Sequence record: NC_010105.1
DNA: 64,000 nucleotides
Direction: 5' to 3' (one strand)
Origin: Escherichia phage JS98
Shown here: positions 3,500 to 41,516 of the stretch, one piece after another
Position numbering within the stretch: position 1 is the stretch's first letter
How the letters are laid out: each line of letters opens with the position of its first letter
Position numbers and translations under genes: made by a program
The notes under the pieces: model-generated
Told to the model about the DNA's origin: nothing
The model's database searches: none
Seen by the model: the letters and a program-made list of their open reading frames with translations, nothing else

Positions 3500-3737
3500 C
3501 CTTGATGCATGATTCAGCCATATGAATTAATGTTTCTGGAGTATCATCTACCATTACATTAAAGCTAAATTCTACAGCCCAATCGGTAGCAACATAAACT
3601 TTAATAAGCTCGCAGGTATCACGAGTGCTCACGGCTTCAAACCAGAACTTAATTGTACTAGGTTGGCCATCATCGTCAATAACTATACAGTCGTGTTCCA
3701 GTTCAAGTCCTGATTTTTTGAATTCATCTAAAGTCAT
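3474..3737 (-). CDS. hypothetical protein (46.2 position)
   Basis: 87-aa ORF packed between 46 and 47. Confidence 0.45.
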   Translation of the reverse strand: MTLDEFKKSGLELEHDCIVIDDDGQPSTIKFWFEAVSTRDTCELIKVYVATDWAVEFSFNVMVDDTPETLIHMAESCIKDAYNDENV

Positions 3738-10495: not shown

Positions 10496-10708
10496 CAGAA
10501 GGCCTCATCAGAAAAGCGGAGTTGAGCTTCAAGCCAATGGATATAATCGGCTGCGGCTTTAATTAAATCAGACTCTAGGTCAGGTAAAGAACCCGAATCC
10601 GATAACTCGTAAAGCGAATGTTCAATCAGACGGCCTTTATGACGGCCAATTTCAATTTTGGTACTCATATCCAAACTCCATATCGATTAAATCATTGTTT
10701 GAAGGTTC

Positions 10709-26197: not shown

Positions 26198-26309
26198 GTA
26201 TCCGTATGTAAACCCTTTACCGCACTTGGGCTCGACCTTATTACAGGTAGGGAAAGGTCCATCACTCAGAGGACGCGACGTTCATGAGGAGAGGGCCGGC
26301 TTGCCTTTA

Positions 26310-26609
26310 TTAGAAAGAACCAGAACCTTTAATTGTGTTCTGGCGACCTTTATTTTCCAATTCGGAGTGGTCGATTTCGTATGCTTGGGCTACACCAAAG
26401 GCTTTTTTAACTTTAGCTAAAGAGCCTTTAGATGTAACAATATTAAAAGTATTACCTTTAGTAAAATCAACCAAATCCACTTGTACGCCCTGTTTACCGA
26501 GGCTTGCTACAATAGCATCAACATATTCTTGGTCTAAGGTGCCTTGGACACCTATTTGGAATGCTTTAGGAGCTTTGGCTTCTGTAATAAATTCTTGATA
26601 AGTTTTCAT
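26310..26609 (-). CDS. internal-protein-like (capsid-targeted) protein
   Basis: N-terminal MKTYQEFITEA matches the T4 internal-protein capsid-targeting leader. Confidence 0.5.
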   Translation of the reverse strand: MKTYQEFITEAKAPKAFQIGVQGTLDQEYVDAIVASLGKQGVQVDLVDFTKGNTFNIVTSKGSLAKVKKAFGVAQAYEIDHSELENKGRQNTIKGSGSF

Positions 26610-26651
26610 ATTATTCCTTAAGTTGATAGAAGTATTCTATCACGGATTTAA

Positions 26652-27068: not shown

Positions 27069-27086
27069 TTTTAATCTCCTGTAGTT

Positions 27087-27124
27087 GATAGGTCTATAGT
27101 ATCATGCCTACAGGAGAAGTAAAC
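27087..27124 (-). promoter_or_regulatory. conserved early-promoter cassette (PeSL-like); inverted repeat CTCCTGTAG/CTACAGGAG pairs the spacer with the denV RBS
   Basis: Minus-strand AAGTTTACTTCTCCTGTAGGCATGATACTATAGACCTATCAACTACAGGAGATTAAAAATG. Confidence 0.55.
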
Positions 27125-27523
27125 TTATTTGTAAGTTTTCATCCAATTCTTGAACAGAGCTGCAACGTCTTTCTCTTTAACGTTCAATTTAACGTCCAGC
27201 ATTTTGCCACCGGCGGCACGTGTCTGACGAATCTTGGCCGTACCGGTTTCGCCATTCCACTCAACATAATACTGCCCGGTGTTCATAGCGATACCATCGC
27301 CATAGTCTTCGTTCTTAGAAGTAGTGAATGCCAACTTCATGGTCTTAGAGACACGGGCCTGCATGCCTGTCTGCAGAGCGTTACGAACGCGAATAACCTG
27401 AGGAGTGGCCTGGGTTAGGTTCTCGTTCAGTTCTTCGGTGAACTCTTCTGATTCAAACATTGCCAAAAGTTCAGCGGGCGCCGGGATTACAGCTTCGGCG
27501 ATAAATTCATTATAAGTTTTCAT
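27125..27523 (-). CDS. ipII: internal protein II-like
   Basis: MKTYNEFIAEA leader; position between denV and ipIII as in T4. Confidence 0.6.
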   Translation of the reverse strand: MKTYNEFIAEAVIPAPAELLAMFESEEFTEELNENLTQATPQVIRVRNALQTGMQARVSKTMKLAFTTSKNEDYGDGIAMNTGQYYVEWNGETGTAKIRQTRAAGGKMLDVKLNVKEKDVAALFKNWMKTYK

Positions 27524-27563
27524 ATAGGTCCTTTAAAGGTAAATGTGTTTAAGTATAGGCTTA

Positions 27564-28160
27564 TTAATTACCACGGGCTGCATTAGCAACGGCGTAAGCG
27601 TACTGAATATTAGCGTCTTTAAACGTACCTTTAGAGGTATCTAGTTCTGCCTTAAAGCCGGCCTTAGTCATAACATCGGCAAATTCTTTACGGAAAGCCA
27701 TTGTATCAAGACCTTTCCATGCTGATTTATGCTTGGCAAATTCAAGACCAGCGAAGTTGACTGCTTTAGCCAATTTATTATCAATAGTCCATTTACCTGC
27801 TTTAGGTACAAATACCGGACCTTTCTGTTTAGAGAACAGTTTTAAATTCCAGCGACGAAGGTCGCCGTCGGCTTTAACAAAAGCTGCGTCCAAGTTACTA
27901 GCAACAACATCTTGAATATGGCCAAATTTAAGCCCATCAGCTTCAATATTTAGGTCGTTACGCCAGCGAAGTCCTTCCCAGGCGAAAGCTTTAAAGTCGG
28001 AAGCTTTTGTAGCTAAATACCGTTCAATAGGAGCTGTTTTAGCGTCAAAGCCGTTTCCTGGGTTGTCAACGCCGTTTCCTCGGTAGGTCCACTCATCTTT
28101 ATTAATGCCTTTGACCTTTCCTGCAGTAGCTTCGGCGATAAATTCTTTATACGTTTTCAT
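27564..28160 (-). CDS. ipIII: internal protein III-like
   Basis: MKTYKEFIAEA leader, 198 aa basic protein, position next to e as in T4. Confidence 0.6.
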   Translation of the reverse strand: MKTYKEFIAEATAGKVKGINKDEWTYRGNGVDNPGNGFDAKTAPIERYLATKASDFKAFAWEGLRWRNDLNIEADGLKFGHIQDVVASNLDAAFVKADGDLRRWNLKLFSKQKGPVFVPKAGKWTIDNKLAKAVNFAGLEFAKHKSAWKGLDTMAFRKEFADVMTKAGFKAELDTSKGTFKDANIQYAYAVANAARGN

Positions 28161-28209
28161 ACGGGTCCTTCAAATGTAAATATTTAATTAGTCTGTTCAA
28201 GTAACTGTA

Positions 28210-28241
28210 GATATACTATCACAATTCTAGGAGATGTAAAC
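28210..28241 (-). promoter_or_regulatory. early promoter (GTTTACA -35, TGataGTATAT -10) of the conserved family
   Basis: Minus-strand AGTTTACATCTCCTAGAATTGTGATAGTATATC upstream of ipIII. Confidence 0.45.
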
Positions 28242-28735: not shown

Positions 28736-28758
28736 AATTACCTCCTGATTATAGGAGG

Positions 28759-28766
28759 TATTTATA
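28759..28766 (-). promoter_or_regulatory. late promoter TATAAATA for gene e, inside an RBS-sequestering inverted repeat
   Basis: Minus-strand GATATAAATACCTCCTATAATCAGGAGGTAATTATG; CCTCC...AGGAGG hairpin encloses the RBS. Confidence 0.6.
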
Positions 28767-29216
28767 TCAAAAGAGCGAATCTAAAACCTTAAACATCGAC
28801 GGGCCCATGACATATTCCCATTGCGGACGTTTAATCAAAGCGAAAGCGTCGAATTCCGGAATCGTACGACCATCAGGGAACGTATGGTAAGCTGTACATT
28901 TGCAATTCTTGAACTGCTCGTGTTCGACAGGCACAGTATATAAGAACAGGTGTAGATTCTTATTGCTTGAATATTTGAACTCACCTAGGTCTTTCAGGAA
29001 CGCAGGGTCGTATGCCGTGAATCCAATCTCTTCTTCGGTTTCACGCATTGCTGCTTGAATAGGCTCTTCACCTGGTTCGACATGACCTTTAGGAATGTCC
29101 CATTTATGACGCATGTTCTCTGGATTACGAGAGCCTGTTACACGACCCATAACCAATTCTTTATCGGCGGTCATGAACAAAATACCAGCAGATAGTTCTT
29201 TCACTTTCTTACTCAT
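28767..29216 (-). CDS. nudE: Nudix hydrolase NudE
   Basis: Start at MSKKVKELS (ATG 29214-29216); Nudix box [22 protein letters not shown]. Confidence 0.75.
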
Positions 29217-29445
29217 CGTCTCGTTCCCATGATTGTTTAAAGATATCTCGTATAATAATTTCAACACATGTTTCTGTTGACGGACTTTCACTATCAGATA
29301 TTTGGACCATATAATCAGAAATAGGTCGGAACAAATCCAAGTCACTTTCTAAATCTTCTTTGATTTTCTCTTCTGATGTCCCGGTGTCATAGGAATACAG
29401 ATAAGAATCGCATGACTCGGATTTAATATAAATCGCAATACTCAT
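29209..29445 (-). CDS. hypothetical acidic protein (78 aa)
   Basis: Intact ORF. Confidence 0.4.
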   Translation of the reverse strand: MSIAIYIKSESCDSYLYSYDTGTSEEKIKEDLESDLDLFRPISDYMVQISDSESPSTETCVEIIIRDIFKQSWERDDE

Positions 29446-30029
29446 TTACGGCATTCCTCAATAAAAGAGTTTAATGTATTTTTCTTAGTGATATCGTCAT
29501 ATACCTTTTTAACTTTAGAAATACGAAAAGGTACTTCAATAACTGCAGTCCATAAAAATGATGCGATAAGTCCTAAGATAGCCGCAGACATCGCTGAAGC
29601 AAATAGCGTAATAGGCAGGTCATTATCCGTTGTCAGGAAAAACCCTAGGAGTGGGAAAAATAATATCCCCATCCAAACATAGAACCTAGAACTCACTAAT
29701 TTGTCGTATTCATCACTCCATGTACGAAAGCCGTATTTTTTGCTATAACAAATCAATGGGTCTGGTGTCTGTTCTTTATGGGGTTCCGGTTGCCAACCAT
29801 TTACGATATAGCCCATTTTATATTCCTCAATTAAAAGTTGTTTCATTTCAGCAGTACAACCCGACCAATCTATTGTACTGGCTGAAATTCCTTCATCGCC
29901 ATCATCAATATTTCGCCATGACTTTTTAATAATCATATTCTCACCACTTGGGATAATGATTCCGGCATTTTCGGGCCGACGGATGAAGTTTACATCAACA
30001 CCCATACAACCCGGTTCATAAAGGGCCAT
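29442..30029 (-). CDS. membrane protein (195 aa; soluble N-domain, C-terminal TM helices)
   Basis: Hydrophobic segments FYVWMGILFFPLLGFFL and LFASAMSAAILGLIASFLWTAVI. Confidence 0.45.
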   Translation of the reverse strand: MALYEPGCMGVDVNFIRRPENAGIIIPSGENMIIKKSWRNIDDGDEGISASTIDWSGCTAEMKQLLIEEYKMGYIVNGWQPEPHKEQTPDPLICYSKKYGFRTWSDEYDKLVSSRFYVWMGILFFPLLGFFLTTDNDLPITLFASAMSAAILGLIASFLWTAVIEVPFRISKVKKVYDDITKKNTLNSFIEECRK

Positions 30030-30715
30030 TACCAGCCCTCCATAGGGAATTCCAGATATACTTGGGCATTAACGCGGATTTCATTTGTAATCTTTTTAAC
30101 ACGGTCTGTATTACGAGACACACGACCAAACCAGCGCCAGCCATTACTTACTGCACGAGAACCTGTATGCCATGTCTGCCAATCAAACTGGAGCAATGTG
30201 CGGTCAGGAGCATCCCACTTGGTTAATTCATTAGACTCAATTTTTTCCAGAACTTCTTTATGCCACTGGCGATAGATAAGTTCGCCTTCAGGAATCTGGC
30301 TAAATTGTACAGTTCCGGTTGCAAAATAAGTAGGACACACATCAGCGTTAACAAGACCAAGAATATGTTCAGAATGGTATCGAGGATTATCATAATCAGG
30401 TTGCCCTGCAGTAATAAAGTGTTGACCAACTGGAATATCCGGACGCGGTACATCATCATGGTGATAACCTGGGATAGCAGGATACCAACCAGGCATAAGC
30501 ATATGAACTCGAGAATCAAATACAACCTGGTCGGTGTTCCAATCGTCCGGCAGGTTCATGATGAAGCTGCGAGTAATAGGACCACCGTTATCAAAAGCGA
30601 AGGCCAACGAACTGTTGAAGAACATAGTTTCGTTTTTGATTTTATCGTTAGAAATTTTACCGGCAAAACTACCTACTGCACGAGCTTGAGAATTAAAAGT
30701 TTTCGGGCTGTTCAT
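30029..30715 (-). CDS. hypothetical protein (228 aa); possible Fe(II)/2-oxoglutarate oxygenase-like (HxD...H...R)
   Basis: GYHHDD then about 100 aa later WHTGSRAVS...R; motif-level guess only. Confidence 0.45.
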   Translation of the reverse strand: MNSPKTFNSQARAVGSFAGKISNDKIKNETMFFNSSLAFAFDNGGPITRSFIMNLPDDWNTDQVVFDSRVHMLMPGWYPAIPGYHHDDVPRPDIPVGQHFITAGQPDYDNPRYHSEHILGLVNADVCPTYFATGTVQFSQIPEGELIYRQWHKEVLEKIESNELTKWDAPDRTLLQFDWQTWHTGSRAVSNGWRWFGRVSRNTDRVKKITNEIRVNAQVYLEFPMEGW

Positions 30716-30729
30716 AATATTTTCCTCAA

Positions 30730-30942
30730 TTACTTTTTGTTGAAAAAGTACATTTTACCTTTAGGGGATAAGGATACACGAAGTGCGTTACCGATACCAA
30801 CTGAACATTTAACCAGGTCAGCAGATTTCAATTCACCAAATGCTTGACGAAGGTCACCGTCACGAGTGTTAACCATCAGGCATTTAGCACCAGCTGCACG
30901 AACTTCGTTTAACATGTTGATTGCTTGGTTAGAAAGTTTCAT
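30730..30942 (-). CDS. hypothetical protein (70 aa)
   Basis: Start at MKLSNQAIN (ATG 30940-30942) after GGAGAA RBS; ORF-track N-extension runs through the promoter. Confidence 0.4.
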   Translation of the reverse strand: MKLSNQAINMLNEVRAAGAKCLMVNTRDGDLRQAFGELKSADLVKCSVGIGNALRVSLSPKGKMYFFNKK

Positions 30943-30970
30943 TTTATTCTCCATTTCACTCTGTTGTTTT

Positions 30971-31008
30971 GATAGGTCTATAGTATCACACCTATAGACC
31001 TTGTATAC
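30971..31008 (-). promoter_or_regulatory. conserved early-promoter cassette (PeSL-like)
   Basis: Minus-strand GTATACAAGGTCTATAGGTGTGATACTATAGACCTATCAAAACAACAG. Confidence 0.5.
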
Positions 31009-31020
31009 TGTTTTATGCAA

Positions 31021-31980
31021 TTATTTTGTGAAAGGACGAATTAAATGTTGGTTATCTTGGAACCGCTTGATGTAGTCATTTTCACCTAGCGTCTTATACA
31101 TATTCACTACAGCTTGGTAGTTTTCCCAGGCATACTCGCGGAACCAGCCTGAAGTGATTGAGGTACACACTTTCTCAAGAGCCATATAGAAACTTAACGA
31201 TGGTGAAATATTGAAGTCATTAGGAACCTGTGAACGTTCTAGGGCCAACACACAAGTTTCTTCATATACGCCAGCCAGTTTAATAGCTTCAGGCAAAGCT
31301 TCAAACTTCTCGCGTGAGGTCATGACTTCAGAACCGTCTTTCATATAAAAGGTATACGCTGGGCGTCCAGCCAATGCCACAGCTTCATGGATAGAGTCAT
31401 GGTCTAATGTATAAATGGTATCATTAAAGAACGATGATTTGTTTACATCCAATTTAGGATGAGAATAGCTCAACGTTTCTTTCTGGCGTTGCAGCATGAT
31501 TTCTTGGAGCTCTTCATTCAAGGTTACACCTTTATTACGAAGATATTTGATGTGGGACATCGTCTTCAAAAAGAACGGGTTGTTCTTCAAATAACGATGG
31601 CTCATTTTGATGGCCAGACAGATATCAGGTGTGGCCCAATAGAAACCCGTAAGACGGTCCTTTTTAATATGATTTTCGGCATATTTCAGGAGACGATAAC
31701 TTGAGGTGAAATCTTCGTCCTGAAGCTCGCCGGTGATTTCTCGTACGTTAGTCAGGGCACGGACGATATAAGCTTCAAAATAGGTTTCTTTACCATTGTA
31801 CATACATTTAAAGGCCTGGACATCAGGATTATCCACAGGAACATGGGCACCGAACATCCGAGCTTTAAAGTGATTCCACGAGCCTTGGTCGGCAATAAAA
31901 TCCCAATCAGAATTTTCGATATACTTACTTTCAATCAGACCAGCGTGGTGCAGTGCACGAGAACCAATAACTAGCATCAT
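31021..31980 (-). CDS. hypothetical protein (319 aa) with N-terminal GS...DxD nucleotidyltransferase-like motif
   Basis: GSRALHHAGLIESKYIENSDWDF near N-terminus; GAGGAAAAT RBS. Confidence 0.45.
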   Translation of the reverse strand: MMLVIGSRALHHAGLIESKYIENSDWDFIADQGSWNHFKARMFGAHVPVDNPDVQAFKCMYNGKETYFEAYIVRALTNVREITGELQDEDFTSSYRLLKYAENHIKKDRLTGFYWATPDICLAIKMSHRYLKNNPFFLKTMSHIKYLRNKGVTLNEELQEIMLQRQKETLSYSHPKLDVNKSSFFNDTIYTLDHDSIHEAVALAGRPAYTFYMKDGSEVMTSREKFEALPEAIKLAGVYEETCVLALERSQVPNDFNISPSLSFYMALEKVCTSITSGWFREYAWENYQAVVNMYKTLGENDYIKRFQDNQHLIRPFTK

Positions 31981-31992
31981 AATATTTTCCTC

Positions 31993-32162
31993 ATTAATAA
32001 AGACGAGTTACTTCATATTTACCCAGTTCAGATTTTTTTGCTTCAATACGCGTTGCGGCTAGATTAGCAGCCTCTAGTGAAGAAAATTGGACCACTTGGG
32101 AAGTATTCTGCCTTACACCACCTTGTGGGTGAGTAACAAAAACAATAAGAACATTATACATA
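31993..32162 (-). CDS. hypothetical small protein (56 aa)
   Basis: MYNVLIVFVTHPQGGVRQ... with GAGGAAAATATT RBS; below ORF-track cutoff. Confidence 0.3.
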
Positions 32163-32182
32163 ATATTTTCCTCAGAGTAAAC

Positions 32183-32422
32183 TTAAATTTCAGCAACGTA
32201 ATCGTTATGCAATTCCCACATATCATCAGAATTATTCTTAATGATAGGAATTATCTCATTAGAGATTTCTTCTGCATAAGGGTCATTGATACAGTGGGCA
32301 TCTTCAAAACGAACACCGTAATCAGACTTCTTATAGGCAAAGCCATAAATCTTTTTAAACTTAGCACGACTAATTCGTACCGGCTCATCAGACTTATCAG
32401 ACAGCGGAGAGTAATACCACAT
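32183..32422 (-). CDS. hypothetical protein (79 aa)
   Basis: Intact ORF. Confidence 0.4.
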   Translation of the reverse strand: MWYYSPLSDKSDEPVRISRAKFKKIYGFAYKKSDYGVRFEDAHCINDPYAEEISNEIIPIIKNNSDDMWELHNDYVAEI

Positions 32423-32466
32423 AGTGTTCTCCTCATGTTGGTGTACGGTAATAGTATCACGGTTTT

Positions 32467-32811
32467 CTAGAGTTGTACATCACTTCTACAATATTCTAAA
32501 AATAATTTATCGTTGTCTACTGTATCCCAACGTCGCCAAGATGGATTCCAGACCAAAGCGTTGTCACCACAATCATTGAGCTTAAAATGGTCATAGTACA
32601 TAGCTATGTGTCTAGTCTCGTCACCAGAGAACCCTAGTATAGGCTCGCCGTGGGTATGATACATATGATGGTGCATTGAGAGGTCGCATTTATAAAACAT
32701 CTCACGTTTACCACGGACGAACAAGAAAGCTTGCCCATTCATATAGAATTCTTTATCCGTTTTCAAAAGGTATTTGAATACTGAATCTTTATGCATAAGT
32801 CCTCCTACCAC
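32467..32811 (-). CDS. hypothetical His-rich protein (114 aa)
   Basis: HHHMYHTH cluster. Confidence 0.4.
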   Translation of the reverse strand: MVGGLMHKDSVFKYLLKTDKEFYMNGQAFLFVRGKREMFYKCDLSMHHHMYHTHGEPILGFSGDETRHIAMYYDHFKLNDCGDNALVWNPSWRRWDTVDNDKLFLEYCRSDVQL

Positions 32812-32826
32812 ATCCTTGTGGTTAAA

Positions 32827-33054
32827 TTATTTTCCTAACGAAATACGAGTAGGTTTTTTGCCAAAATATTCTTCATAAGAACCATCTAAACGACCTGCTT
32901 TAGACCGACAATACGAATCGTACTTTTTGTAATAAGTCATCTCAGTATTATAACGCGGGTGTCTATCGGCCATAATAATACTTAACGGCCAACCTTTGGC
33001 ATAATCACGAAGACCGTTTATTTTACGAATGTATCTTTTCTTTAATTTTAGCAT
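32827..33054 (-). CDS. hypothetical basic protein (75 aa)
   Basis: Intact ORF. Confidence 0.4.
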   Translation of the reverse strand: MLKLKKRYIRKINGLRDYAKGWPLSIIMADRHPRYNTEMTYYKKYDSYCRSKAGRLDGSYEEYFGKKPTRISLGK

Positions 33055-33272
33055 GAGCTCGGGTACCAGATTTTACCATCGGGACGAGCAACGAAGGTGC
33101 GACCAGCTTCTTCGCCGTAACAAGAGCTATTCAGCCAATCTTCAAGACGAACTTCACCATCGTAATCGTCTAACTCAACACCAAAACTTTGAGCAGAAGC
33201 CATATCTTTTACTTTCTTATACAGGGCAGCCAGTTCAAGAGCAGCTTTTTCTAATTCATCAATATCAGTCAT
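33048..33272 (-). CDS. WSSS-C tail family paralog 1 (74 aa), ends WYPSSC
   Basis: Acidic helical protein; internal WLNSSC and terminal WYPSSC. Confidence 0.5.
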   Translation of the reverse strand: MTDIDELEKAALELAALYKKVKDMASAQSFGVELDDYDGEVRLEDWLNSSCYGEEAGRTFVARPDGKIWYPSSC

Positions 33273-33282
33273 TTTTTATTCC

Positions 33283-33492
33283 TTAGCAAGACATAGAGGA
33301 GCTAAACCAGAAACCTTCACCTTCTGGGATACCGTAGTCATCACGGACCCATTCGTAATCATCATATTCCGGACTAGAAGCCGGAATATATTCTTCGCCA
33401 CCAGCGTGGAAGTGCTGACCTGTTTCGTCAGCCACGGACTGGCCTTTACGTACTAATTCACGGATTTGTTTTTCGATTTCATCAATAGTCAT
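33283..33492 (-). CDS. WSSS-C tail family paralog 2 (69 aa), ends WFSSSMSC
   Basis: Shared C-terminal motif. Confidence 0.5.
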   Translation of the reverse strand: MTIDEIEKQIRELVRKGQSVADETGQHFHAGGEEYIPASSPEYDDYEWVRDDYGIPEGEGFWFSSSMSC

Positions 33493-33501
33493 TTTATTAC
33501 C

Positions 33502-33699
33502 TTAGCATTCGTAAGAGGATGATACCCAAGAGGTACCACTAATAGTAATACAACCGTTATAAAGCGTGATATGTCGTTCTAAGTCACGAACACCATCGAT
33601 ATAGATATCAGCTTCTTCGCGTTCTTCTTTACAAATCTGGATAACGTTTTCAATAGCTGCGGCGGCAGTACGGATTGCACAATCTAATTCACGAGACAT
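33502..33699 (-). CDS. WSSS-C tail family paralog 3 (65 aa), ends WVSSSYEC
   Basis: Shared C-terminal motif. Confidence 0.5.
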   Translation of the reverse strand: MSRELDCAIRTAAAAIENVIQICKEEREEADIYIDGVRDLERHITLYNGCITISGTSWVSSSYEC

Positions 33700-33708
33700 A
33701 ATATTTCC

Positions 33709-33990
33709 TTAACATTCAGAAGAAGAGGACACCCAACCACCATTTTCCAGGTCAGTTGTATAGTCATGAGTATTAACAATAGCCCATTCAGGATGACCAT
33801 CTTCTTCCCAATGGGCAAGGTCAGCTTTCAAGGCACCAGGAGAATAATAGTCACCGCCCATACCGCGAGCAGGGTATATATTAAAATGAGTCTCATATTT
33901 GTCTGCAATTTCCTCGGCACGACGAATAGCTTCATGAATTTCTTTTACTGCGGCCAGAAGCTCTGGGTTGTTATGATTATCATTCATCAT
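33709..33990 (-). CDS. WSSS-C tail family paralog 4 (93 aa), ends GGWVSSSSEC
   Basis: Shared C-terminal motif. Confidence 0.5.
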   Translation of the reverse strand: MMNDNHNNPELLAAVKEIHEAIRRAEEIADKYETHFNIYPARGMGGDYYSPGALKADLAHWEEDGHPEWAIVNTHDYTTDLENGGWVSSSSEC

Positions 33991-33999
33991 AGCTTTTCC

Positions 34000-34290
34000 T
34001 TAGCACATTGCTGAAGAGGAGACCCAGGCACCAACTGTAACGACACCGTTTTCAACTTCACCGCCATTGTTTTCAATTTCATCTTTAAACCACTGGGAGC
34101 ATTCATAACCAACAGGGTAGTATGTACGTCCTGAGCCATAATCACCTGTTCCGAATTGAATACCATACTTATCGGCAATAGCTTCACATTTGTGTTCGAT
34201 GATATCCACTTTATTCAGAAGAGCATAGATAGCCTTTTCTGCAGATTTCTCGTCGTTGTATTCAGGGATTTCAATTTCAATTTTATTCAT
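34000..34290 (-). CDS. WSSS-C tail family paralog 5 (96 aa), ends GAWVSSSAMC
   Basis: Shared C-terminal motif plus internal YECSQWF. Confidence 0.5.
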   Translation of the reverse strand: MNKIEIEIPEYNDEKSAEKAIYALLNKVDIIEHKCEAIADKYGIQFGTGDYGSGRTYYPVGYECSQWFKDEIENNGGEVENGVVTVGAWVSSSAMC

Positions 34291-34640
34291 GATTTACATT
34301 CCTTAATAAAGGTTTCAAGGTCATTACGGTTGGTTTGTTTTACATACTCATTATAATTAGCCATCTCTAAAGCATATCTCTTACGGATGGGAGCATTCAA
34401 AGCATTTGTATGGCAAATATCATACACGAGAGGGATAAAATAAGCCACGACGGCCGGAGCGATTATCATATAGAAACCCATCTCAATAGGCATGACTCCT
34501 TCGATTGCAGCCATAACTGTGGTCATTACCAGACCAACCAGACCGCCGAGCATACCTGTGACAATTCCCGTGAATAAGGAAATAGCAATATCATATTCAG
34601 CCAATTGATAAACATGCGATGAAAGACTAGGCCGTTCCAT
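34287..34640 (-). CDS. membrane protein (about 117 aa, 2-3 TM helices)
   Basis: Hydrophobic segments GIVTGMLGGLVGLVMTTVMAAI and FYMIIAPAVVAYFIPLV. Confidence 0.45.
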   Translation of the reverse strand: MERPSLSSHVYQLAEYDIAISLFTGIVTGMLGGLVGLVMTTVMAAIEGVMPIEMGFYMIIAPAVVAYFIPLVYDICHTNALNAPIRKRYALEMANYNEYVKQTNRNDLETFIKECKS

Positions 34641-35169
34641 TTTGAACCTCTTTAGCGTATTCACGGCATTCAGCAATAAAACGATTAAGCTTCCGTTGTT
34701 GTTTACGACTTTCTAATGTGTACTCAGCAGTTAAGATACCAAGCTCGGCTTTATCATAATTTTTAATATCGGTGTAAGATGGCCGACGGTCGACCATTCC
34801 AAATACATCACCATTTTCTAAAGCCACATAGCATACTAAATGGTAATCATCGTCTGCCATATTAAGAAGCACACAATCATTGCTCTCATTTAAAGAATAT
34901 ACTGAATAACGTAGTCCAGCGAATTCCACTCGTTGAATAGCCAGATTTACGTCAATAATTTCCAAAGCATCTTCAAAAGAAAGGTCTTCAGCTAAAGCAA
35001 AAATAAAAGGTAATTTGGTAGTATCGCCACGGCTAGATGTTCTGCTTAAGAAATCGTTTGAATAGCCTAGGTCTTGGCGAATTCTATAAAGAACTGAATT
35101 GGTTTCATGGGAAAGACCACTATTTTTAAACCAATCAATATTTGATATAAGGTTATCATATAAACTCAT
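34627..35169 (-). CDS. hypothetical protein (180 aa)
   Basis: Intact ORF; first gene after terminator hairpin. Confidence 0.45.
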   Translation of the reverse strand: MSLYDNLISNIDWFKNSGLSHETNSVLYRIRQDLGYSNDFLSRTSSRGDTTKLPFIFALAEDLSFEDALEIIDVNLAIQRVEFAGLRYSVYSLNESNDCVLLNMADDDYHLVCYVALENGDVFGMVDRRPSYTDIKNYDKAELGILTAEYTLESRKQQRKLNRFIAECREYAKEVQNGTA

Positions 35170-35193
35170 AATATTCTCCTCTCCTCCAAATAG

Positions 35194-35210
35194 GGAGACC
35201 GAAGTCTCCC
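35194..35210 (-). terminator. terminator-like hairpin GGGAGAC-TTCG-GTCTCCC (weak U-run)
   Basis: Perfect 7-bp stem directly after the stop of 35218-35811. Confidence 0.4.
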
Positions 35211-35217
35211 GGTAACA

Positions 35218-35811
35218 TTACTTAAGTGAATTAATGTAGTCTTCGATATCGGCTGAAGTCGTGTCCATTCCAACTTGTGGGCCTTTAAACGTTTCTACAC
35301 GCAGCAGAGTATCTTCAATATCAATCTTAGTCAGTGCAGCTATTTCAACCACATCATCGGCAGTAGCAATACCAAGGGCGGCCATATTACGAGTTTCACG
35401 GATGTACTCGAGCTTAACAGCCAGTTCCTGACGAGAGTCATCAAGTTCCTTGACCTTCAGTTTAATTTCATTACGCATTTCGATATAATCGTCAGCTTTC
35501 TTACGAAGTTGAGTGGCTGTACGACGATAAAGGAGGCCGAGTTTAGCATGTACCTGAACATCGGCGCCTTCGGCAATCAGTTTACGAATTTCGCGTTCTT
35601 TAGAAGCAGCCAGTTGGTCTTTTTCATTTGCCAATGCACGAATGCGTTTTTCTTCATTCACAGACTTAACATGAGCAGTCTGGAGTTCGGTAATTTTATC
35701 AATCAGGGTAGAAGCAGCTTTAGTATACTGGTCTTCGATTGACAGGTTCTGAGTCATTGCGGTACCCAGTTTAGAACGGATGAACTCAACAATTTTCTTT
35801 AAAGTATTCAT
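35218..35811 (-). CDS. coiled-coil protein (about 197 aa); possible PspA/IM30-like
   Basis: Start at [14 protein letters not shown] (ATG 35809-35811); long heptad-like helices; PspA likeness is impressionistic. Confidence 0.45.
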
Positions 35812-35854
35812 AGTATTTCCTTCAGTCGGTTGGTATTTTGTAATCCATGAGGAC

Positions 35855-35884
35855 ATTATACCCTGTCCTCTGAGGGTTGTAAAC
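35855..35884 (-). promoter_or_regulatory. early promoter (GTTTACA -35, 17-bp spacer, TATAAT -10) with inverted repeat GAGGAC/GTCCTC around the -10
   Basis: Minus-strand TGTTTACAACCCTCAGAGGACAGGGTATAATGTCCTCATGG. Confidence 0.55.
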
Positions 35885-35887
35885 ATT

Positions 35888-36286
35888 TTATTTCATTTTA
35901 GCGAGGCAGATTTCATTGGCTTCCCATTGAGCTTGCTTAATAATAGCTTTGGATACAGGAACCTTTTGACCATAAGTTTTTGACGTTGAGAGAACAATAT
36001 ATTTGTTTGCCTCATTATGCCAACCTAGTGATTTTTCGCCATGACTACCTTTAACCACAGCTGACACCTCAACAGAGCAACCACCATCAGAAATCTTGGT
36101 TTCTACAATCCATTCATTTCTCTCGGCAGCTTCAATTTCCGATCTCCTTTTTTCTTCATACATGGTGGCCCAATCGGTTTTTGCCAAGTTGAAAGCAAGA
36201 GCTTTCTCTAATTCTTTGGCAGCTTTTTGTTGTTCAGGTGTTAATGAATTATATAACTCTTGCATTTCTTTATCTTCGATATTCAT
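35888..36286 (-). CDS. hypothetical protein (132 aa)
   Basis: Intact ORF. Confidence 0.4.
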
Positions 36287-36343
36287 TATGTTCTCCTCAA
36301 ATTACGGGCTCATAATATCTCAATCATGGGCCCATGTAAACAA

Positions 36344-36607
36344 TTATTTCATATTATTGAAATAATCTTCTGCATTAAAATCGTTATCATGGTAAACTTT
36401 GGTAGACGTTTTGGCGTAGCCTTCAGCTGAGAACATATTAATCACAACTTTAATTGTATACCACTGTCCATCTTCGTTACCCATTACTGCATAGGTTTCA
36501 TACACTGGGTGTTCAGGACCGATAACCTTAATATCGTTAACAGTAGCACCAAATTCTTCAGGAACGCATTTCATAAAGAAATTAAACAATTCACCATAAT
36601 TATCCAT
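36344..36607 (-). CDS. hypothetical protein (about 87 aa)
   Basis: Start at MDNYGELF (ATG 36605-36607) after GAAGGAGAG RBS. Confidence 0.4.
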   Translation of the reverse strand: MDNYGELFNFFMKCVPEEFGATVNDIKVIGPEHPVYETYAVMGNEDGQWYTIKVVINMFSAEGYAKTSTKVYHDNDFNAEDYFNNMK

Positions 36608-36633
36608 TTTACTCTCCTTCACACTGTTGTTTT

Positions 36634-36671
36634 GATAGGTCTATAGTATCATGTTTAAAGGAGGTGTAAAC
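36634..36671 (-). promoter_or_regulatory. conserved early-promoter cassette (PeSL-like)
   Basis: Minus-strand GTTTACACCTCCTTTAAACATGATACTATAGACCTATCAAAACAACAG. Confidence 0.5.
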
Positions 36672-36706
36672 AACTTTGTGAAATTATTTTTAGTTTAAAC
36701 CCCCTA

Positions 36707-36728
36707 AAAGGAGACCAAAGTCTCCTTT
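36707..36728 (-). terminator. rho-independent terminator (AAAGGAGAC-CAAA-GTCTCCTTT palindrome)
   Basis: Hairpin immediately after stop of 36731-37348, followed by TTTAGGGGG on minus strand. Confidence 0.5.
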
Positions 36729-36730
36729 CA

Positions 36731-37348
36731 TTATTTACGGGTCTTTTCGAACTGTGCTGCGTCACCTGCAAGGCGGCGGGCTTGACGAAGTTTGTTATCA
36801 ATTTCTTCGTGCATAGGCTGGGTATACTTAAGGCCTTCAACCGTCAGGTAAAGACGATAGAGGTCCGGGGTATCTAGGTTGTTAATGTGCTGCCCATTAC
36901 GAAGGGCGTTGAATTCTCGAACGAGTTGTTTAGTTTCGGATTCGATTTCAGAAACCAAAGAAGCCAGCTGGTTATATTTTTTAACAATAGTGCTGGTGTC
37001 GAACTTGATTTTAGGTTTAGGAGCTTCTTTTACAGGCTCTGCTTTAGGTGTAGGTTTCGGCGCTGCAACTTTGGTCTGAGCCGCGGGTTTAGAAACAGGA
37101 GCTTTAGCTGGTTTAGCAGGCTTAGTAGAGCCACCGGCTACGATATCTTTAAAAGCTTTGGAAGCTTTGTAATATTCTTTCTGGCTACTAGTATCAAAAC
37201 CATACATATCATAAACGTTTTTAAAGAACTCGGTAGTGGTTTTAGTCCCGGAAATTTTATCATAAGCAGCTTGCCACATATCTTTAGTCATGCGCACGCC
37301 GGCTTCATTCAGAACGCTTTCGTTCAAAAATTCATTGTAAGTTTTCAT
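36731..37348 (-). CDS. internal-protein-like protein (205 aa) with Ala/Pro/Lys-rich linker
   Basis: MKTYNEFLNES capsid-targeting leader; KPAKPAKAPVSKPAAQTK low-complexity segment. Confidence 0.55.
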   Translation of the reverse strand: MKTYNEFLNESVLNEAGVRMTKDMWQAAYDKISGTKTTTEFFKNVYDMYGFDTSSQKEYYKASKAFKDIVAGGSTKPAKPAKAPVSKPAAQTKVAAPKPTPKAEPVKEAPKPKIKFDTSTIVKKYNQLASLVSEIESETKQLVREFNALRNGQHINNLDTPDLYRLYLTVEGLKYTQPMHEEIDNKLRQARRLAGDAAQFEKTRK

Positions 37349-37376
37349 TATTGTTTCCTGTGTTAATTAACTTATC

Positions 37377-37384
37377 TATTTATA
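37377..37384 (-). promoter_or_regulatory. late promoter TATAAATA
   Basis: Minus-strand TATAAATAG about 30 nt upstream of the 36731-37348 ATG. Confidence 0.55.
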
Positions 37385-37385
37385 C

Positions 37386-37412
37386 AAAAAGGCCCAACCT
37401 TTCGGAAGGGCC
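37386..37412 (-). terminator. rho-independent terminator (GGCCC...GGGCC stem followed by T-run)
   Basis: Minus-strand GGCCCTTCCGAAAGGTTGGGCCTTTTTGTATA right after stop of 37418-37972. Confidence 0.6.
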
Positions 37413-37417
37413 GTAAA

Positions 37418-37972
37418 TCAGTTCTTGTAGAACCGGAACGGGTTCACGTGGAAGGCCAACATAGCTTTAGGGATTTTACGAGACAAAAGACTCTTAAGCT
37501 TCCAGCCACAGTACACGCGAAGGTAAAATGTGATTCCGCCGACCTTAAGATAAGGAACTGAAGCAAATACACCCCAGGCGTCATCATTCCACATCCACAA
37601 CCAACCATGGTGAGCTTTATCAGGAGAACCTGATTCTACGTCAGGATTACCACGATAATGGAATTCCGAGCTACAATCACGGCCTAGTTTATGATAAGCA
37701 AAGTTATAAGCTTTATTTCGCCATAGCCAAGCTACTCTCTGGAGATAAACACCACCAGGCATTTTCCTGATTTTAGCCCAACGTTTAATATGACCTTTAT
37801 CGCCGTCAATTGGATTATCGTATGTCATCATCCAATCAAAACCGTATGGCAATTTACCAGTCTTTTTATTATGAAAAGGAACCACAAAAGGCGCAAGGAT
37901 AACGGCTAGAACCATAGAGATAAAATCTAGTGGGACCAACAGAATCCAACTCAAATATTTTAAAAGTTTCAT
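37418..37972 (-). CDS. membrane-anchored Trp-rich protein (184 aa; N-terminal TM helix)
   Basis: N-terminal LKYLSWILLVPLDFISMVLAVILAPFVV; bracketed by two copies of the same promoter/terminator repeat. Confidence 0.5.
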   Translation of the reverse strand: MKLLKYLSWILLVPLDFISMVLAVILAPFVVPFHNKKTGKLPYGFDWMMTYDNPIDGDKGHIKRWAKIRKMPGGVYLQRVAWLWRNKAYNFAYHKLGRDCSSEFHYRGNPDVESGSPDKAHHGWLWMWNDDAWGVFASVPYLKVGGITFYLRVYCGWKLKSLLSRKIPKAMLAFHVNPFRFYKN

Positions 37973-37998
37973 ATTATTTCCTAAGTTAGTTTACTGTA

Positions 37999-38006
37999 TA
38001 TTTATA
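37999..38006 (-). promoter_or_regulatory. late promoter TATAAATA
   Basis: Minus-strand TATAAATATACAGTAAACTAACTTAGGAAATAATATG upstream of 37418-37972. Confidence 0.55.
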
Positions 38007-38035
38007 CAAAAAAGGCCCAACCTTTCGGAAGGGCC
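38007..38035 (-). terminator. rho-independent terminator closing the tRNA/small-RNA transcription unit
   Basis: Same GGCCCTTCCGAAAGGTTGGGCC hairpin plus T-run as at 37386-37412. Confidence 0.6.
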
Positions 38036-38040
38036 TTTAA

Positions 38041-38205
38041 CCTAGGGTAACCTTGTCGGGGTTCCACCTGCTAGGCAAGTGTTCTGTGCGCCGTTTCAGC
38101 TGTGAGATAAGGGACTTTAAGAGGAACTCATGTACTCCTTAAAGTCGGGTCTTATTCAGGGAACTTCAGTCCGACGACTTACCGGTAGCGACCCGGTTTC
38201 TTGTT
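38041..38205 (-). ncRNA. candidate structured small RNA downstream of the tRNA cluster
   Basis: Non-coding interval between tRNA-Arg and the terminator with a 9-bp inverted repeat (GACTTTAAG...CTTAAAGTC); no cloverleaf found. Confidence 0.25.
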
Positions 38206-38281
38206 TGGTCGAGACAGTAGGGATCGAACCTACGACCTACGGTTTAGAAGACCGTTGCTCTTCCTTCTGAGCTATGCCTCG
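38206..38281 (-). tRNA. tRNA-Arg (anticodon UCU)
   Basis: Hand-folded cloverleaf: acceptor CGAGGCA/TGTCTCG, D-arm GCTC..GAGC, anticodon loop CTTCTAA, T-arm GTAGG-TTCGATC-CCTAC, encoded CCA. Confidence 0.7.
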
Positions 38282-38285
38282 TATT

Positions 38286-38360
38286 TGGCGGACATGCATG
38301 GATTCGAACCATGGACCAATTGATTAACAGTCAACTGCTCTACCGCTGAGCTACACATCC
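38286..38360 (-). tRNA. tRNA-Asn (anticodon GUU)
   Basis: Hand-folded: acceptor GGATGTG/CATGTCC (two G-U pairs), D-arm GCTC..GAGC, anticodon loop CTGTTAA, T-arm CATGG-TTCGAAT-CCATG, encoded CCA. Confidence 0.65.
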
Positions 38361-38364
38361 AAAT

Positions 38365-38438
38365 TGGTGGCCCTGGGTGGAATCGAACCACCATCCAGCG
38401 ATTATGAGTCGCTCGCTTGACCGTCCAGCTACAGGGCC
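38365..38438 (-). tRNA. tRNA with CAU anticodon (Ile-lysidine type or Met)
   Basis: Hand-folded: acceptor GGCCCTG/CAGGGCC, anticodon stem AGCGA/TCGCT with loop CTCATAA, T-arm GGTGG-TTCGATT-CCACC, encoded CCA; short D-stem. Confidence 0.6.
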
Positions 38439-38443: not shown

Positions 38444-38716
38444 TTAAATTACAAATCCAGCAGGAGCATTATCGTCTTTAGCCATGTGCTGAATTGTATG
38501 ATAAGTCATTTCTTCAGGAGCAACCAGATAAGCCGCAGCATTAACTAGTGGAATTATTTTTGGTTTAGCGAATGTGCTATCGGCAATTGCCATAAAGGGC
38601 TCGCCGTCGGTCTCAACTTCGCCAAATTGGCATTCATATGAAATAGAACAACGTTTAGTAGTTGTTGTCTTGGTTTCTGGGTCATAAAAAGCTAATTTTA
38701 ATACTAACATAAACAC
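38444..38716 (-). CDS. hypothetical protein (90 aa)
   Basis: Intact ORF just upstream of tRNAs. Confidence 0.4.
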   Translation of the reverse strand: MFMLVLKLAFYDPETKTTTTKRCSISYECQFGEVETDGEPFMAIADSTFAKPKIIPLVNAAAYLVAPEEMTYHTIQHMAKDDNAPAGFVI

Positions 38717-38839: not shown

Positions 38840-39325
38840 TTAAAGCATATCAAGTGCTTTCACATCAGGGATTTTAATTTCTTCTTCAATAATATACAGC
38901 TTAACGTAAGAAATTACACGGATGAAATCACCATCATATTCACAAGCCATACCAAGGAGCTCAGTAAGGGCTTCATTCAAGTAGTATTCTTCTTCGTCAT
39001 CGTTCAGCAAGGCTTCTAAGTCTTGGATACCGAGGACTTTATCTAAAAATTCAGGAGTCAATTGGCCTGATTTTACACCAGATTCAATGTGGGCAATAAC
39101 CAGATGCTTAACTACGTCCCATTCCGAATTACCACATTTATCCGGGTTGTTGCAATGAGAACCATGGAAAAGTTCTAGGATATATTTGTACTGTTGGATT
39201 TCATGTTCTTCTACGCCAAATACAGTCTGGGTTTTATAGTTATCGCCATCATTTTCCCAGGTTTCAATTTCAATTGCATAACCTTTAGGGATAATTTGTC
39301 CGAATTTAATATTCATTGTGGCCAC
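38840..39325 (-). CDS. hypothetical acidic protein (161 aa)
   Basis: Intact ORF. Confidence 0.45.
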   Translation of the reverse strand: MATMNIKFGQIIPKGYAIEIETWENDGDNYKTQTVFGVEEHEIQQYKYILELFHGSHCNNPDKCGNSEWDVVKHLVIAHIESGVKSGQLTPEFLDKVLGIQDLEALLNDDEEEYYLNEALTELLGMACEYDGDFIRVISYVKLYIIEEEIKIPDVKALDML

Positions 39326-40202: not shown

Positions 40203-40217
40203 TCACTCATTTGTTTT

Positions 40218-40257
40218 GATAGGGCTATAGTATCATCAACTAAAGCCCGTTGTAAAC
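40218..40257 (-). promoter_or_regulatory. conserved early-promoter cassette (PeSL-like, GGGCT variant)
   Basis: Minus-strand TTGTTTACAACGGGCTTTAGTTGATGATACTATAGCCCTATCAAAACAAATG. Confidence 0.5.
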
Positions 40258-40259: not shown

Positions 40260-40553
40260 TTATTTTGTAATTTCTTTGATTTTAGAAACTACTTTATCTT
40301 TGGTAAGACCGGAAAAAGTCTTATATTTTGTAAAGTGGATATCATCACCAAGATTAATATAATATTTCTTTTTAACCGTATTGAATGCTATACTAACAGG
40401 TTTACCATTTACTGTAATAGTAATTTGCTGAGCCTTATCAACATCACCTGAGCCAAAGGCTCTTTTAATATCGCTACTAATATCGGCCATAGCCGCTTTG
40501 TTAATGGAATACAAATCTGTCGATTCTTTGATAAATTCTTGATAAGTTTTCAT
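40260..40553 (-). CDS. ipI: internal protein I-like
   Basis: MKTYQEFIKES capsid-targeting leader, 97 aa, located next to 57B as ipI is in T4. Confidence 0.55.
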   Translation of the reverse strand: MKTYQEFIKESTDLYSINKAAMADISSDIKRAFGSGDVDKAQQITITVNGKPVSIAFNTVKKKYYINLGDDIHFTKYKTFSGLTKDKVVSKIKEITK

Positions 40554-40583
40554 TTTTTGTTTCCGTTAGGTTGGGTTTGTTTT

Positions 40584-40621
40584 GATAGGGCTATAGTATC
40601 ATGCCTATAGACCTTGTAAAC
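40584..40621 (-). promoter_or_regulatory. conserved early-promoter cassette (PeSL-like)
   Basis: Minus-strand GTTTACAAGGTCTATAGGCATGATACTATAGCCCTATCAAAACAAACCC. Confidence 0.5.
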
Positions 40622-40632
40622 ATCTTTTTAAA

Positions 40633-41516
<884 letters not shown>

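Follow-up and report, generated by a model that had tools for sequence, protein, structure and literature searches.

What makes up the interval between nudE and the tRNA genes of Escherichia phage JS98, and why is it so much longer than the corresponding interval in phage T4? The window examined here is a stretch of 64,000 nucleotides of the JS98 sequence (NC_010105.1), and all coordinates are positions in the whole of it; the published genome has 170,523 bp, three tRNA genes and no homing endonucleases (PMC2993671). The minus strand carries every gene between 26.6 and 41.3 kb, the order from left to right being denV, two internal-protein genes, e (lysozyme), nudE, 21 open reading frames (ORFs; 29209-37972, numbered o01 to o21 from leftmost to rightmost) and the tRNAs. 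From the start of nudE (29216) to tRNA-Arg (38206) there are 8,989 bp, with 21 minus-strand ORFs of 55-319 amino acids. An earlier reading made from the sequence only had given about 9 kb with some 22 ORFs, a good estimate of the size and one ORF too many, and had put the T4 interval at roughly half this length; that comparison is right, T4 having about 40% of the JS98 length (3,682 vs 8,989 bp).

The answer that we favour, at odds of about four in five, is that the interval forms the hyperplastic region between e and the tRNA genes in a T-even phage of JS98 type (Dhakavirus), a run of leftward-transcribed, non-essential genes organized as exchangeable cassettes, and that these include a module made up of a nucleotidyltransferase (NTase)-fold protein, o05, and a set of small proteins, o10-o14, which share a C-terminal tail and are referred to below as WSSS-C proteins. 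The pair, which many unrelated phages carry, is undescribed.

Backbone genes, cassettes and repeated elements

Sequence comparison presents the region as a conserved backbone, e.2 - e.3 - e.6 - e.8, with extra genes between. When the complete T4 genome was searched by tblastn, only four of the 21 ORFs found counterparts, namely o02 (e.2, 30% identity), o15 (e.3, 21%), o17 (e.6, 74%) and o19 (e.8, 82%), which bears out the impression that most ORFs here have none. The extra genes lie at three places: o01 beside nudE, the 4.3-kb block o03-o14 between e.2 and e.3, and o20 with o21 between e.8 and the RNA genes; o16 and o18 are also counted among the extra cassettes between backbone genes. The T4 interval (3,682 bp from nudE to tRNA-Arg, 3,417 bp to rnaC) holds seven ORFs, e.2-e.8, together with rnaC and rnaD. 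It has the same position, strand and backbone genes as that of JS98, and both end at rnaD (or its homologue) and tRNA genes, but the e.4, e.5 and e.7 genes of T4 belong to PHROG families other than those of o16 and o18, and T4 has no o01, o03-o14, extra internal-protein gene or DUF7338 gene, and a truncated e.2. JS98, for its part, lacks rnaC and segB, and has three tRNAs vs eight in T4. All 21 ORFs have a match among the PHROG families, at E values from 3e-9 to 1e-150, and are therefore real conserved phage genes, although a function is assigned to none of those families. Pfam matches are confined to o21 (DUF7338) and o05 (DUF7277 plus DUF7275); the ten largest ORFs gave no meaningful matches to NCBIfam or PADLOC, and none of the ORFs scanned matched a PADLOC defence model, that library being one of defence, not anti-defence, proteins.

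The island is matched by 379 phage records, 24 of which cover at least 80% of it at 91-96% identity, and these 24 are all Dhakavirus (JS98/JS10-type). Phage MN04 (species Dhakavirus JS98) is collinear over the whole island, where its genes are all annotated as hypothetical; the interval measures 7,989 bp in JS10, 9,142 bp in MN04, 8,668 bp in dhabil and 9,014 bp in dhaeg. Local alignments of these four with JS98 reveal seven cassette-sized indels across 26-42 kb. Missing from JS10 is 36298-37385, with e.8 and the internal-protein-like gene. Two stretches are missing from dhabil and dhaeg, 27126-28229 with both internal-protein genes beside e, and 37413-37950 with the DUF7338 gene, one copy of a ~90-nt repeat being kept at the latter site; both phages have 292 bp more at 30728/9, encoding a 76-amino-acid ORF. 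An additional 323 bp at ~34654 gives dhaeg an extra e.4-type ORF (phrog_2604), and 145 bp at 38082/3 in MN04 is rnaC, 98.6% identical to that of T4 (the neighbouring rnaD is 77-86% identical). Relatives thus differ by whole cassettes, the ends of which lie in or beside repeated regulatory elements. Beyond the tRNAs, two further ORFs (38444-38716, phrog_14864, and 38840-39325, phrog_2290) have no counterpart in dhabil and dhaeg, so that the plastic region runs past the right boundary at which the sequence-only reading had stopped.

What are these regulatory elements? Within the island, the T4-specific consensus picks out early promoters at three intergenic positions, along with three strong hairpins and two late promoters. 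The early promoters, of the T4 type TTTACW-N16-18-TAYWAT, are at 36670-36643, 36340-36312 and 35883-35855, with further copies at 27123, 40620 and 40256. One repeated element, present in five copies in 27-41 kb, is an early promoter (TTTACA-N16-18-TACTAT) that has a palindrome within it (direct-repeat families D1, D3 and D5); besides the cassette at 30944-31027, copies of these families are at 27072-27137, 36607-36690, 40203-40235 and 40557-40640. The cassette at 36607-36730 is a breakpoint zone of the JS10 deletion, the ends of which fall in promoter cassettes. Around the DUF7338 gene, 32-nt D10 repeats (37386-37417 and 38009-38040, 94% identical) sit within direct repeats of ~90 nt (37324-37417 vs 37951-38035, 82% identical), each made up of a terminator hairpin, a late-promoter box TATAAATA (37384-37377 and 38006-37999) and a ribosome-binding site (RBS). 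Where JS98 has two copies of this ~90-nt repeat, dhabil and dhaeg hold just one, as might be left by an excision. A late-promoter box TATAAATA also precedes the lysozyme gene e (28736-28766), overlapping a hairpin (-11.9 kcal/mol, z -4.2) that also contains the RBS.

Hyperplastic regions of T4-type phages were reportedly discussed by Comeau in 2007. A model for them, based on promoter-stem-loop cassettes (PeSLs), modular shuffling and mini-circles, has been published (Arbiol et al., 2010; PMC2839356), and PeSLs have been described for the phage pairs RB49/phi1, PST/T4 and nt-1/KVP40 (PMC2839356; PMC4122927); the PST/T4 PeSL promoter consensus, TTTACW-N17-TAYWAT, is one that the JS98 early promoters fit (PMC4122927). 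As in that model, small non-essential ORFs lie between conserved genes and their content varies between close relatives; repeated early-promoter/stem-loop units flank variable ORFs, although not every JS98 cassette has both parts; and the DUF7338 cassette is bracketed by repeats of which relatives have a single copy, as expected of PeSL-type excision. Cassette differences of this sort would be created by homologous recombination between repeated regulatory cassettes during co-infection. JS98 departs from the model in that its two bracketing units carry late (TATAAATA), not early, promoters, and in that one of its promoter cassettes has the palindrome in the promoter spacer, not upstream; moreover, the model was published for phage pairs other than the JS98 type, and what is seen here of putative mini-circles is their footprint, the single repeat copy of dhabil and dhaeg. 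The earlier suggestion of sub-units with their own early promoter and terminator is thus sound in that cassettes do have units of their own, but two of the promoters are late; its description of the region as hyperplastic and built of cassettes agrees well with the repeat families, the T4-type promoters, the hairpins and the indels among relatives.

Several observations weigh against this account. A generic scan for sigma-70 promoters and terminators gave no enrichment over shuffled sequences (30 vs 28.4 expected, and 10 vs 7.5), only the T4-specific consensus patterns being informative; the complete layout of stem-loop plus promoter is found in one cassette only (36607-36730); some indel ends (30728/9 and ~34654) are at plain gene junctions with no recognizable repeat; and none of the ORFs has a demonstrated function. 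That the region collects 'host-interaction cargo', as the sequence-only reading had it, is an inference.

Might the block have arrived recently instead, as a foreign insertion specific to this lineage (in a single event or with a mobile element), the short interval of T4 being ancestral? An interval 2.4 times as long as that of T4, 17 of 21 ORFs without a T4 counterpart, and a 2-oxoglutarate (2OG) oxygenase-like ORF (o03) that is clearly mobile, with near-identical versions in Aeromonas, Serratia and Erwinia phages and in ~110-kb Klebsiella contigs, would all suit such an origin. The composition of the island offers no sign of it, however, G+C content being 0.37-0.44 and equal to that of the flanks; Pfam and PHROG scans detected no integrase, transposase or homing endonuclease among the island ORFs, in keeping with the listing of JS98 as free of homing endonucleases (PMC2993671); the extra genes lie among the T4-backbone genes e.2, e.3, e.6 and e.8; and relatives vary cassette by cassette, not as a single block. 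In Mosigvirus AlbertHofmann, where the interval is 7,779 bp, the block is likewise between e.2 and e.3 and the order is as in JS98 (e.6, e.3, three WSSS-C genes, an o07-like gene, the NTase gene, the 2OG gene, e.2 and nudE), at 55-92% amino-acid identity to the JS98 proteins, which implies that the block is old. T4 itself has a degraded e.2: its 102-amino-acid product is the N-terminal part of a protein of ~165-195 amino acids interrupted by two in-frame stops (3480-3961 of our T4 segment L002, minus strand), and a remnant with the C-terminal membrane segment and the tail ...NNFITECRK can still be read in frame just upstream of nudE. This suggests that e.2 of T4 is a decayed gene, and decay on the T4 side rather than gain in JS98. 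Because the block is genus-wide in Dhakavirus and also occurs in Mosigvirus, and because its e.2 has been cut short, T4 looks like a reduced genome, and we regard recent insertion as very improbable. The word 'expanded', used of this island in the sequence-only reading, is apt relative to T4 but should not be taken to mean a recent gain. Comparison with T4 and its relatives does not refute that reading in the way it had set for itself: the content of T4 differs, and close relatives share that of JS98, with no known functions for its ORFs.

An NTase-fold protein and small proteins with a common tail

The product of o05 has an N-terminal DUF7277 domain followed by a helical DUF7275 domain. Across 50 sequences of 37-54% identity, the residues G6, S7, D25 and D27 never vary; they form the pattern hG[GS] followed by the metal-binding motif DxD, as in the polymerase-beta superfamily, and the protein conforms to the NTase alpha/beta fold. 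A second conserved cluster comprises H128, H194-D195-H198, E240-E241 and E248-R249, and the most conserved part of the protein is its C-terminal DUF7275 domain. NTases of this type are present in more than 700 sequenced phages, and DUF7275/DUF7277 proteins form 1,243 clusters at 50% identity. NrdC.11 of T4, annotated as 'nucleotidyltransferase', was considered as a hidden counterpart of o05 and dismissed (hhalign probability 0.05%).

The five products of o10-o14 have an N-terminal helix, strong acidity and often a YG.GG.YY.P motif in common. Those of o11-o14 end in W-x-S-S-S-x-x-C, and that of o10 has an internal WLNSSC and a terminal WYPSSC; on alignment, the W, two S residues and the terminal C are invariant, at 24-35% identity to the first member. 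Motif ORFs of this kind are found just upstream of the NTase gene in Aeromonas phage 44RR2.8t (at another place in the genome, within the nrdD-nrdC region), in the Phapecoctavirus Schickermooser and in the Pseudomonas Otagovirus Psxphi15.

To what extent do the two families go together? Eighty viral loci found by an NTase profile, on contigs of 8-371 kb, were divided into stop-to-stop segments of at least 30 amino acids, and a segment was scored when it ended W..SS.{0,2}C. Upstream on the NTase strand, 190 of 3,251 segments carried the motif, compared with none of 3,474 downstream on that strand and four of 9,463 on the opposite strand. An upstream motif ORF was present in 74 of the 80 loci, and in 78 if the four opposite-strand hits, which are true family members in divergent clusters, are included; after collapse of the NTases into clusters at 70% identity, 26 of 27 clusters had one. 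The motif ended five of 977 segments in the JS98 window, all in the o10-o14 array, and none of 2,387 in T4, which is without the NTase. Clustering at ~45% identity sorts the 171 distinct small proteins into 43 groups; the proteins are 41-159 amino acids long (median 82) and occur in one to five copies per locus. The linkage of the NTase and WSSS-C families is thus specific, oriented and independent of lineage. Literature searches on RB69ORF134c, the tail motif and the domains DUF7275, DUF7277 and DUF7338 turned up nothing of relevance, and a paper on SegB amplification does not deal with these genes. The four opposite-strand cases (loci L076, L077, L080 and L087) are small proteins (...YAWCSSSMEC) 5-6 kb from the NTase gene, beside which an ORF ending ...WWESSEEYWDDSGC is a possible degenerate relative. 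The 2OG-oxygenase-like gene, tried as a third member of the module, was rejected: it co-occurs in two of 50 distant loci, and only in T-even-like genomes.

It could be argued that such adjacency is inherited synteny with no functional coupling, and many of the 80 loci are indeed from related T4-like genomes with conserved gene order. Against this, the association survives the collapse to 27 clusters, holds across the full range of contig sizes and in Straboviridae, Stephanstirmvirinae and Otagovirus, occurs at two different positions within T4-like genomes, and has the marked orientation bias just described, whereas every other gene family is found with the NTase in six of the 27 clusters at most. 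We consider this the least probable of all the explanations weighed here.

How, then, might the two families be coupled? NTase-fold enzymes transfer nucleotides to hydroxyl groups, and in the pairs GlnD/PII and MntA/HepT an enzyme of this fold attaches a nucleotide to a side-chain hydroxyl of its small protein partner. These pairs provide a working analogy for an o05 protein of NTase fold with small partners that have an invariant hydroxyl-bearing motif. Because only the tail is universal among the small proteins, it is the probable recognition feature, and may be the handle by which the NTase recognizes variable small-protein bodies; in being a portable tag on interchangeable bodies it would resemble the N-terminal capsid-targeting tag of phage internal proteins. 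The NTase would then modify the tail, probably by Ser-O-nucleotidylylation, the serines being the most plausible acceptors because of the hydroxyl specificity of NTase-fold enzymes, and a second reaction in the DUF7275 domain might possibly follow. We put forward only tentatively, and with the odds slightly against it, the proposal that the NTase and WSSS-C proteins form a widespread, undescribed enzyme/partner system in which the tail is a portable tag, recognized and covalently modified, most plausibly by serine nucleotidylylation. Some points tell against it. Conservation of neighbourhood shows linkage, not chemistry; in JS98, four unrelated ORFs separate the o10-o14 array from o05; and o05 has no sequence-level match to solved structures or to DUF1814 (a profile search of PDB was empty, and matches to PDB chains were at chance level), its Pfam matches being DUF7277 and DUF7275 only, with nothing in NCBIfam or PADLOC.

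Two other relationships between the families can be envisaged. The small proteins might be antitoxin-like inhibitors that time or restrain a toxic NTase of the MenT/AbiEii kind, which would nucleotidylate the 3' ends of host tRNAs. This is unlikely: o05 has no DUF1814 signature, and DUF7275, its best-conserved part with His, Asp and Glu invariants, is an extra domain missing from MenT proteins; up to five divergent paralogues per locus would be unnecessary for an antitoxin, and these acidic proteins, sharing only their C-terminal tail, are unrelated to MenA or AbiEi; invariant terminal W, S, S and C residues on otherwise unrelated bodies are more like a tag than an inhibitor surface; the annotated ~5-kb flanks in 44RR2.8t, Schickermooser and Psxphi15 show no tRNA genes; and o05 belongs to lytic phages, not to chromosomal toxin-antitoxin loci. 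Alternatively, the small proteins might be ribosomally made precursors in which S-S-S-x-x-C is converted to a thioether ring (by activation of Ser, elimination and addition of Cys), with the NTase as the activating enzyme and DUF7275 providing a second step. The tandem paralogues with one short invariant motif on variable bodies would fit such an idea, as would the two conserved residue clusters of o05 (GS/DxD and H128...R249), and the spacing of Ser and then Cys resembles motifs that form lanthionine or AviCys. It is nevertheless entirely speculative: no known enzyme family for ribosomally synthesized and post-translationally modified peptides was detected in the island (Pfam, NCBIfam), the proteins have 41-159 amino acids with conserved, structured N-terminal parts, and NTases of the polymerase-beta type are not known to carry out such chemistry. 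We think it improbable, if a shade less so than recent insertion of the whole block.

Other genes of the island and its borders

The features of the island and its borders are collected in Table 1.

Table 1. Features between nudE and the tRNA genes of phage JS98
Feature	Position	Strand	Remarks
nudE	28767-29216	minus	NUDIX match
o01, acidic ORF, 78 aa	29209-29445	minus	net charge -13; stop overlaps nudE start; phrog_2900, E 2e-36; no T4 match
o02, T4 e.2 homologue, membrane protein	29442-30029	minus	phrog_2203, E 7e-71; tblastn to T4 67960-67481, 30% identity
o03, putative Fe(II)/2-oxoglutarate-dioxygenase-like protein, PhyH-like group, 228 aa	30029-30715	minus	from motif and fold
o04, small basic ORF, ~70 aa from the start annotated in MN04	30730-30942	minus	phrog_6001, E 8e-42
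Repeated promoter cassette	30944-31027	minus	TATACA-N17-TACTAT with palindrome GGTCTATAGG/CCTATAGACC; hairpin -15.4 kcal/mol, z -2.9
o05, NTase-fold protein, DUF7277 + DUF7275, 319 aa	31021-31980	minus	
o06 (55 aa), o07 (79 aa), o08, o09	31994-33054	minus	phrog_20278, 3723, 9796, 7065; no T4 matches
o08, His-rich, 109-114 aa	32467-32811	minus	
o09, basic, 75 aa	32827-33054	minus	net charge +12
o10-o14, five paralogous small acidic proteins, 65-96 aa	33048-34290	minus	net charge -6 to -12; phrog_899, phrog_4882
o15, T4 e.3 homologue, membrane protein	34287-34640	minus	tail ...ETFIKECKS; phrog_2330 = T4 e.3 family; tblastn
o16, acidic, 180 aa, at T4 e.4/e.5 position, other family	34627-35169	minus	phrog_8788 vs e.4 phrog_2604, e.5 phrog_2607
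o17, T4 e.6 homologue, 197 aa from MNTLKK	35218-35811	minus	74% identity over 203 aa; phrog_1203; early promoter 35883-35855
o18, 132 aa, at T4 e.7 position, other family	35888-36286	minus	phrog_8232 vs e.7 phrog_7266; own early promoter 36340-36312
o19, T4 e.8 homologue, 87 aa from MDNYGELF	36344-36607	minus	82% identity; phrog_2678; absent from JS10
PeSL-type cassette	36607-36730	minus	terminator hairpin 36707-36728 (-15.2 kcal/mol, z -4.15), then early promoter TTTACA-N16-TACTAT 36670-36643; family D1
o20, internal-protein-like, 205 aa	36731-37348	minus	net charge +10; N-terminus MKTYNEFLNE; phrog_2280; absent from JS10
Left bracketing repeat	37324-37417	minus	terminator hairpin (-15.3 kcal/mol, then U5), late promoter, RBS
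o21, DUF7338 membrane protein, 184 aa	37418-37972	minus	net charge +15; N-terminal transmembrane helix; Pfam E 5e-63; phrog_2143
Right bracketing repeat	37951-38040	minus	terminator of tRNA/rnaD transcription unit (hairpin -17.9 kcal/mol, then U6), then late promoter
rnaD homologue (T4 stable RNA, species 2 RNA)	38086-38201	minus	77% identity to T4; between tRNA-Arg and terminator; unannotated in relatives
tRNA-Arg, tRNA-Asn, tRNA-Met	38206-38438	minus	

Much of this inventory had been anticipated by the sequence-only reading: the membrane protein (o02, whose family phrog_2203 is labelled 'membrane protein'), the His-rich and basic small ORFs (o08 and o09), a possible Fe/2OG-oxygenase-like ORF with HxD...H...R (o03, now backed by motif and fold), a 319-amino-acid GS...DxD protein (o05, with its invariant motif residues and NTase fold), the WSSS-C array of five tandem ORFs, an extra internal-protein-like gene (o20, from its MKTYNEFLNE start) and a repeat-bracketed membrane-protein cassette (o21, between the 32-nt and ~90-nt repeats). 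One label has to be withdrawn. The ORF called 'PspA-like' is o17, the T4 e.6 homologue, and its counterpart in JS10 is annotated e.6. PspA/IM30 was rejected for it on three counts: neither o17 nor any of 25 family members matched PF04012 (PspA_IM30), a profile search of PDB sequences retrieved neither PspA nor Vipp1 but only chance-level matches (as did the o17 sequence itself against PDB chains), and hhalign with Escherichia coli PspA gave a probability of 0.6%; the E. coli PspA query, used as positive control, matched PspA_IM30 at 9e-49. There are no more than hints that o17 is helical or a coiled coil. Its homologues form 53 clusters, and all source-named matches are from T4-like phages, bar one Xanthomonas fragment.

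The case for o03 as a putative Fe(II)/2OG dioxygenase is supported by conserved motif residues and, more weakly, by the predicted structure. H85-x-D87, H183, R194 and R198 are invariant in 27 homologues, R194 being 11 residues beyond H183, the same triad and arginine spacing as in PhyH-like dioxygenases (WelO5, HalD, GriE, HygX, KanJ and proline hydroxylases). An AlphaFold 2 (AF2) model, with a predicted local distance difference test (pLDDT) score of 82.7, retrieves almost only this group from PDB, nearly all of the top 50 Foldseek matches being 2OG oxygenases (E 8e-4 to 8e-3), and one UniRef cluster of homologues is named 'Phytanoyl-CoA dioxygenase family'. On the other side, o03 is shorter than these enzymes at 228 amino acids; the match to the double-stranded beta-helix fold of such enzymes is weak (template-modelling score 0.3-0.43), with the HxD in a low-confidence loop (pLDDT 49-68); and there is no Pfam match at E <= 0.1, no NCBIfam match and, in searches of PDB chains by sequence, nothing above chance level. 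Homologues of o03 form 1,144 clusters, the best 120 of which are all at least 68% identical, an unusual degree of conservation for an accessory gene; they occur in Escherichia, Aeromonas, Serratia, Erwinia and Citrobacter phages, in the ~110-kb Klebsiella contigs and in large bacterial contigs.

To judge from its N-terminus, o20 would encode an extra capsid-targeted internal protein, injected with the DNA: MKTYNEFLNE can be compared with the MKTYQEFIAE of T4 ipII and ipIII, a capsid-targeting sequence with an L/I-x-E cleavage motif, and a late promoter (TATAAATA, 37384-37377, a consensus match only) is located 29 nt upstream of the start codon. With T4 IPI, IPII and IPIII it has in common the MKTY(N/Q/K)EF(I/L)xE N-terminus, the late promoter and the basic composition, but beyond the first ~10 residues its body is unrelated (phrog_2280, no T4 match). 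Six genes of the window begin MK(T/S)Y.EF(I/L).E, at ~26300-26612, 27125-27523, 27564-28160, 36731-37348, 40260-40553 and 40633-40842, and at the DNA level their start regions make up repeat families D2, D4, D6, D7 and D8. In dhabil and dhaeg the two beside e are missing, and that at 40260-40553 is replaced by another internal head protein gene. The neighbouring o21, absent from dhabil and dhaeg, is preceded by its own predicted late promoter (38006-37999).

Two hydrophobic C-terminal helices are present in o02, the tail of which ends ...NSFIEECRK. Similar tails, F[IV]xEC[RK], end the neighbouring genes e.2, e.3 and o16 (in which the tail includes ...FIAECREY...) as well as T4 e.3, e.4 and e.5 (in the window, 29442-29470, 34287-34315 and 34640-34680). 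In o02 and o15, the tail codons contain a Shine-Dalgarno sequence (GAGGAA or AAGGAA) and run right up to the start codon of the gene that follows; F[IV]xEC[RK] may therefore serve as a conserved joint for translational coupling or recombination no less than as a protein motif.

At the right-hand end, the rnaD homologue marks the true edge of the protein-coding island; it was found by BLAST against T4, Rfam having found only the three tRNAs near this edge. The rnaC gene, absent from JS98, is present in MN04 (10385-10523 of our segment L007) and Mosigvirus AlbertHofmann at 98.6-99.3% identity to T4, and since this is far above the identity of the flanks, it suggests a recent exchange of rnaC between genera.

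Implications for T4-like phages

The island itself is ordinary: a T4-like genome is known to have a plastic periphery, and this one was sequenced in 2007 and recurs in dozens of relatives. The map given here separates the genes of the T4 backbone from the exchangeable cassettes and locates the points of exchange; in addition, one label is put right (e.6, not PspA) and structural assignments are made for two enzymes that databases call hypothetical. For DUF7275/DUF7277 and the small proteins of the phrog_899 type, the pairing of NTase and WSSS-C genes offers, through its signature of four invariant residues, a hypothesis that can be tested directly. If the tail does prove to be a modification tag, this would be a new means by which phages control a set of early effector proteins, and the WSSS-C proteins would represent a new class of phage early proteins that are activated or regulated post-translationally.

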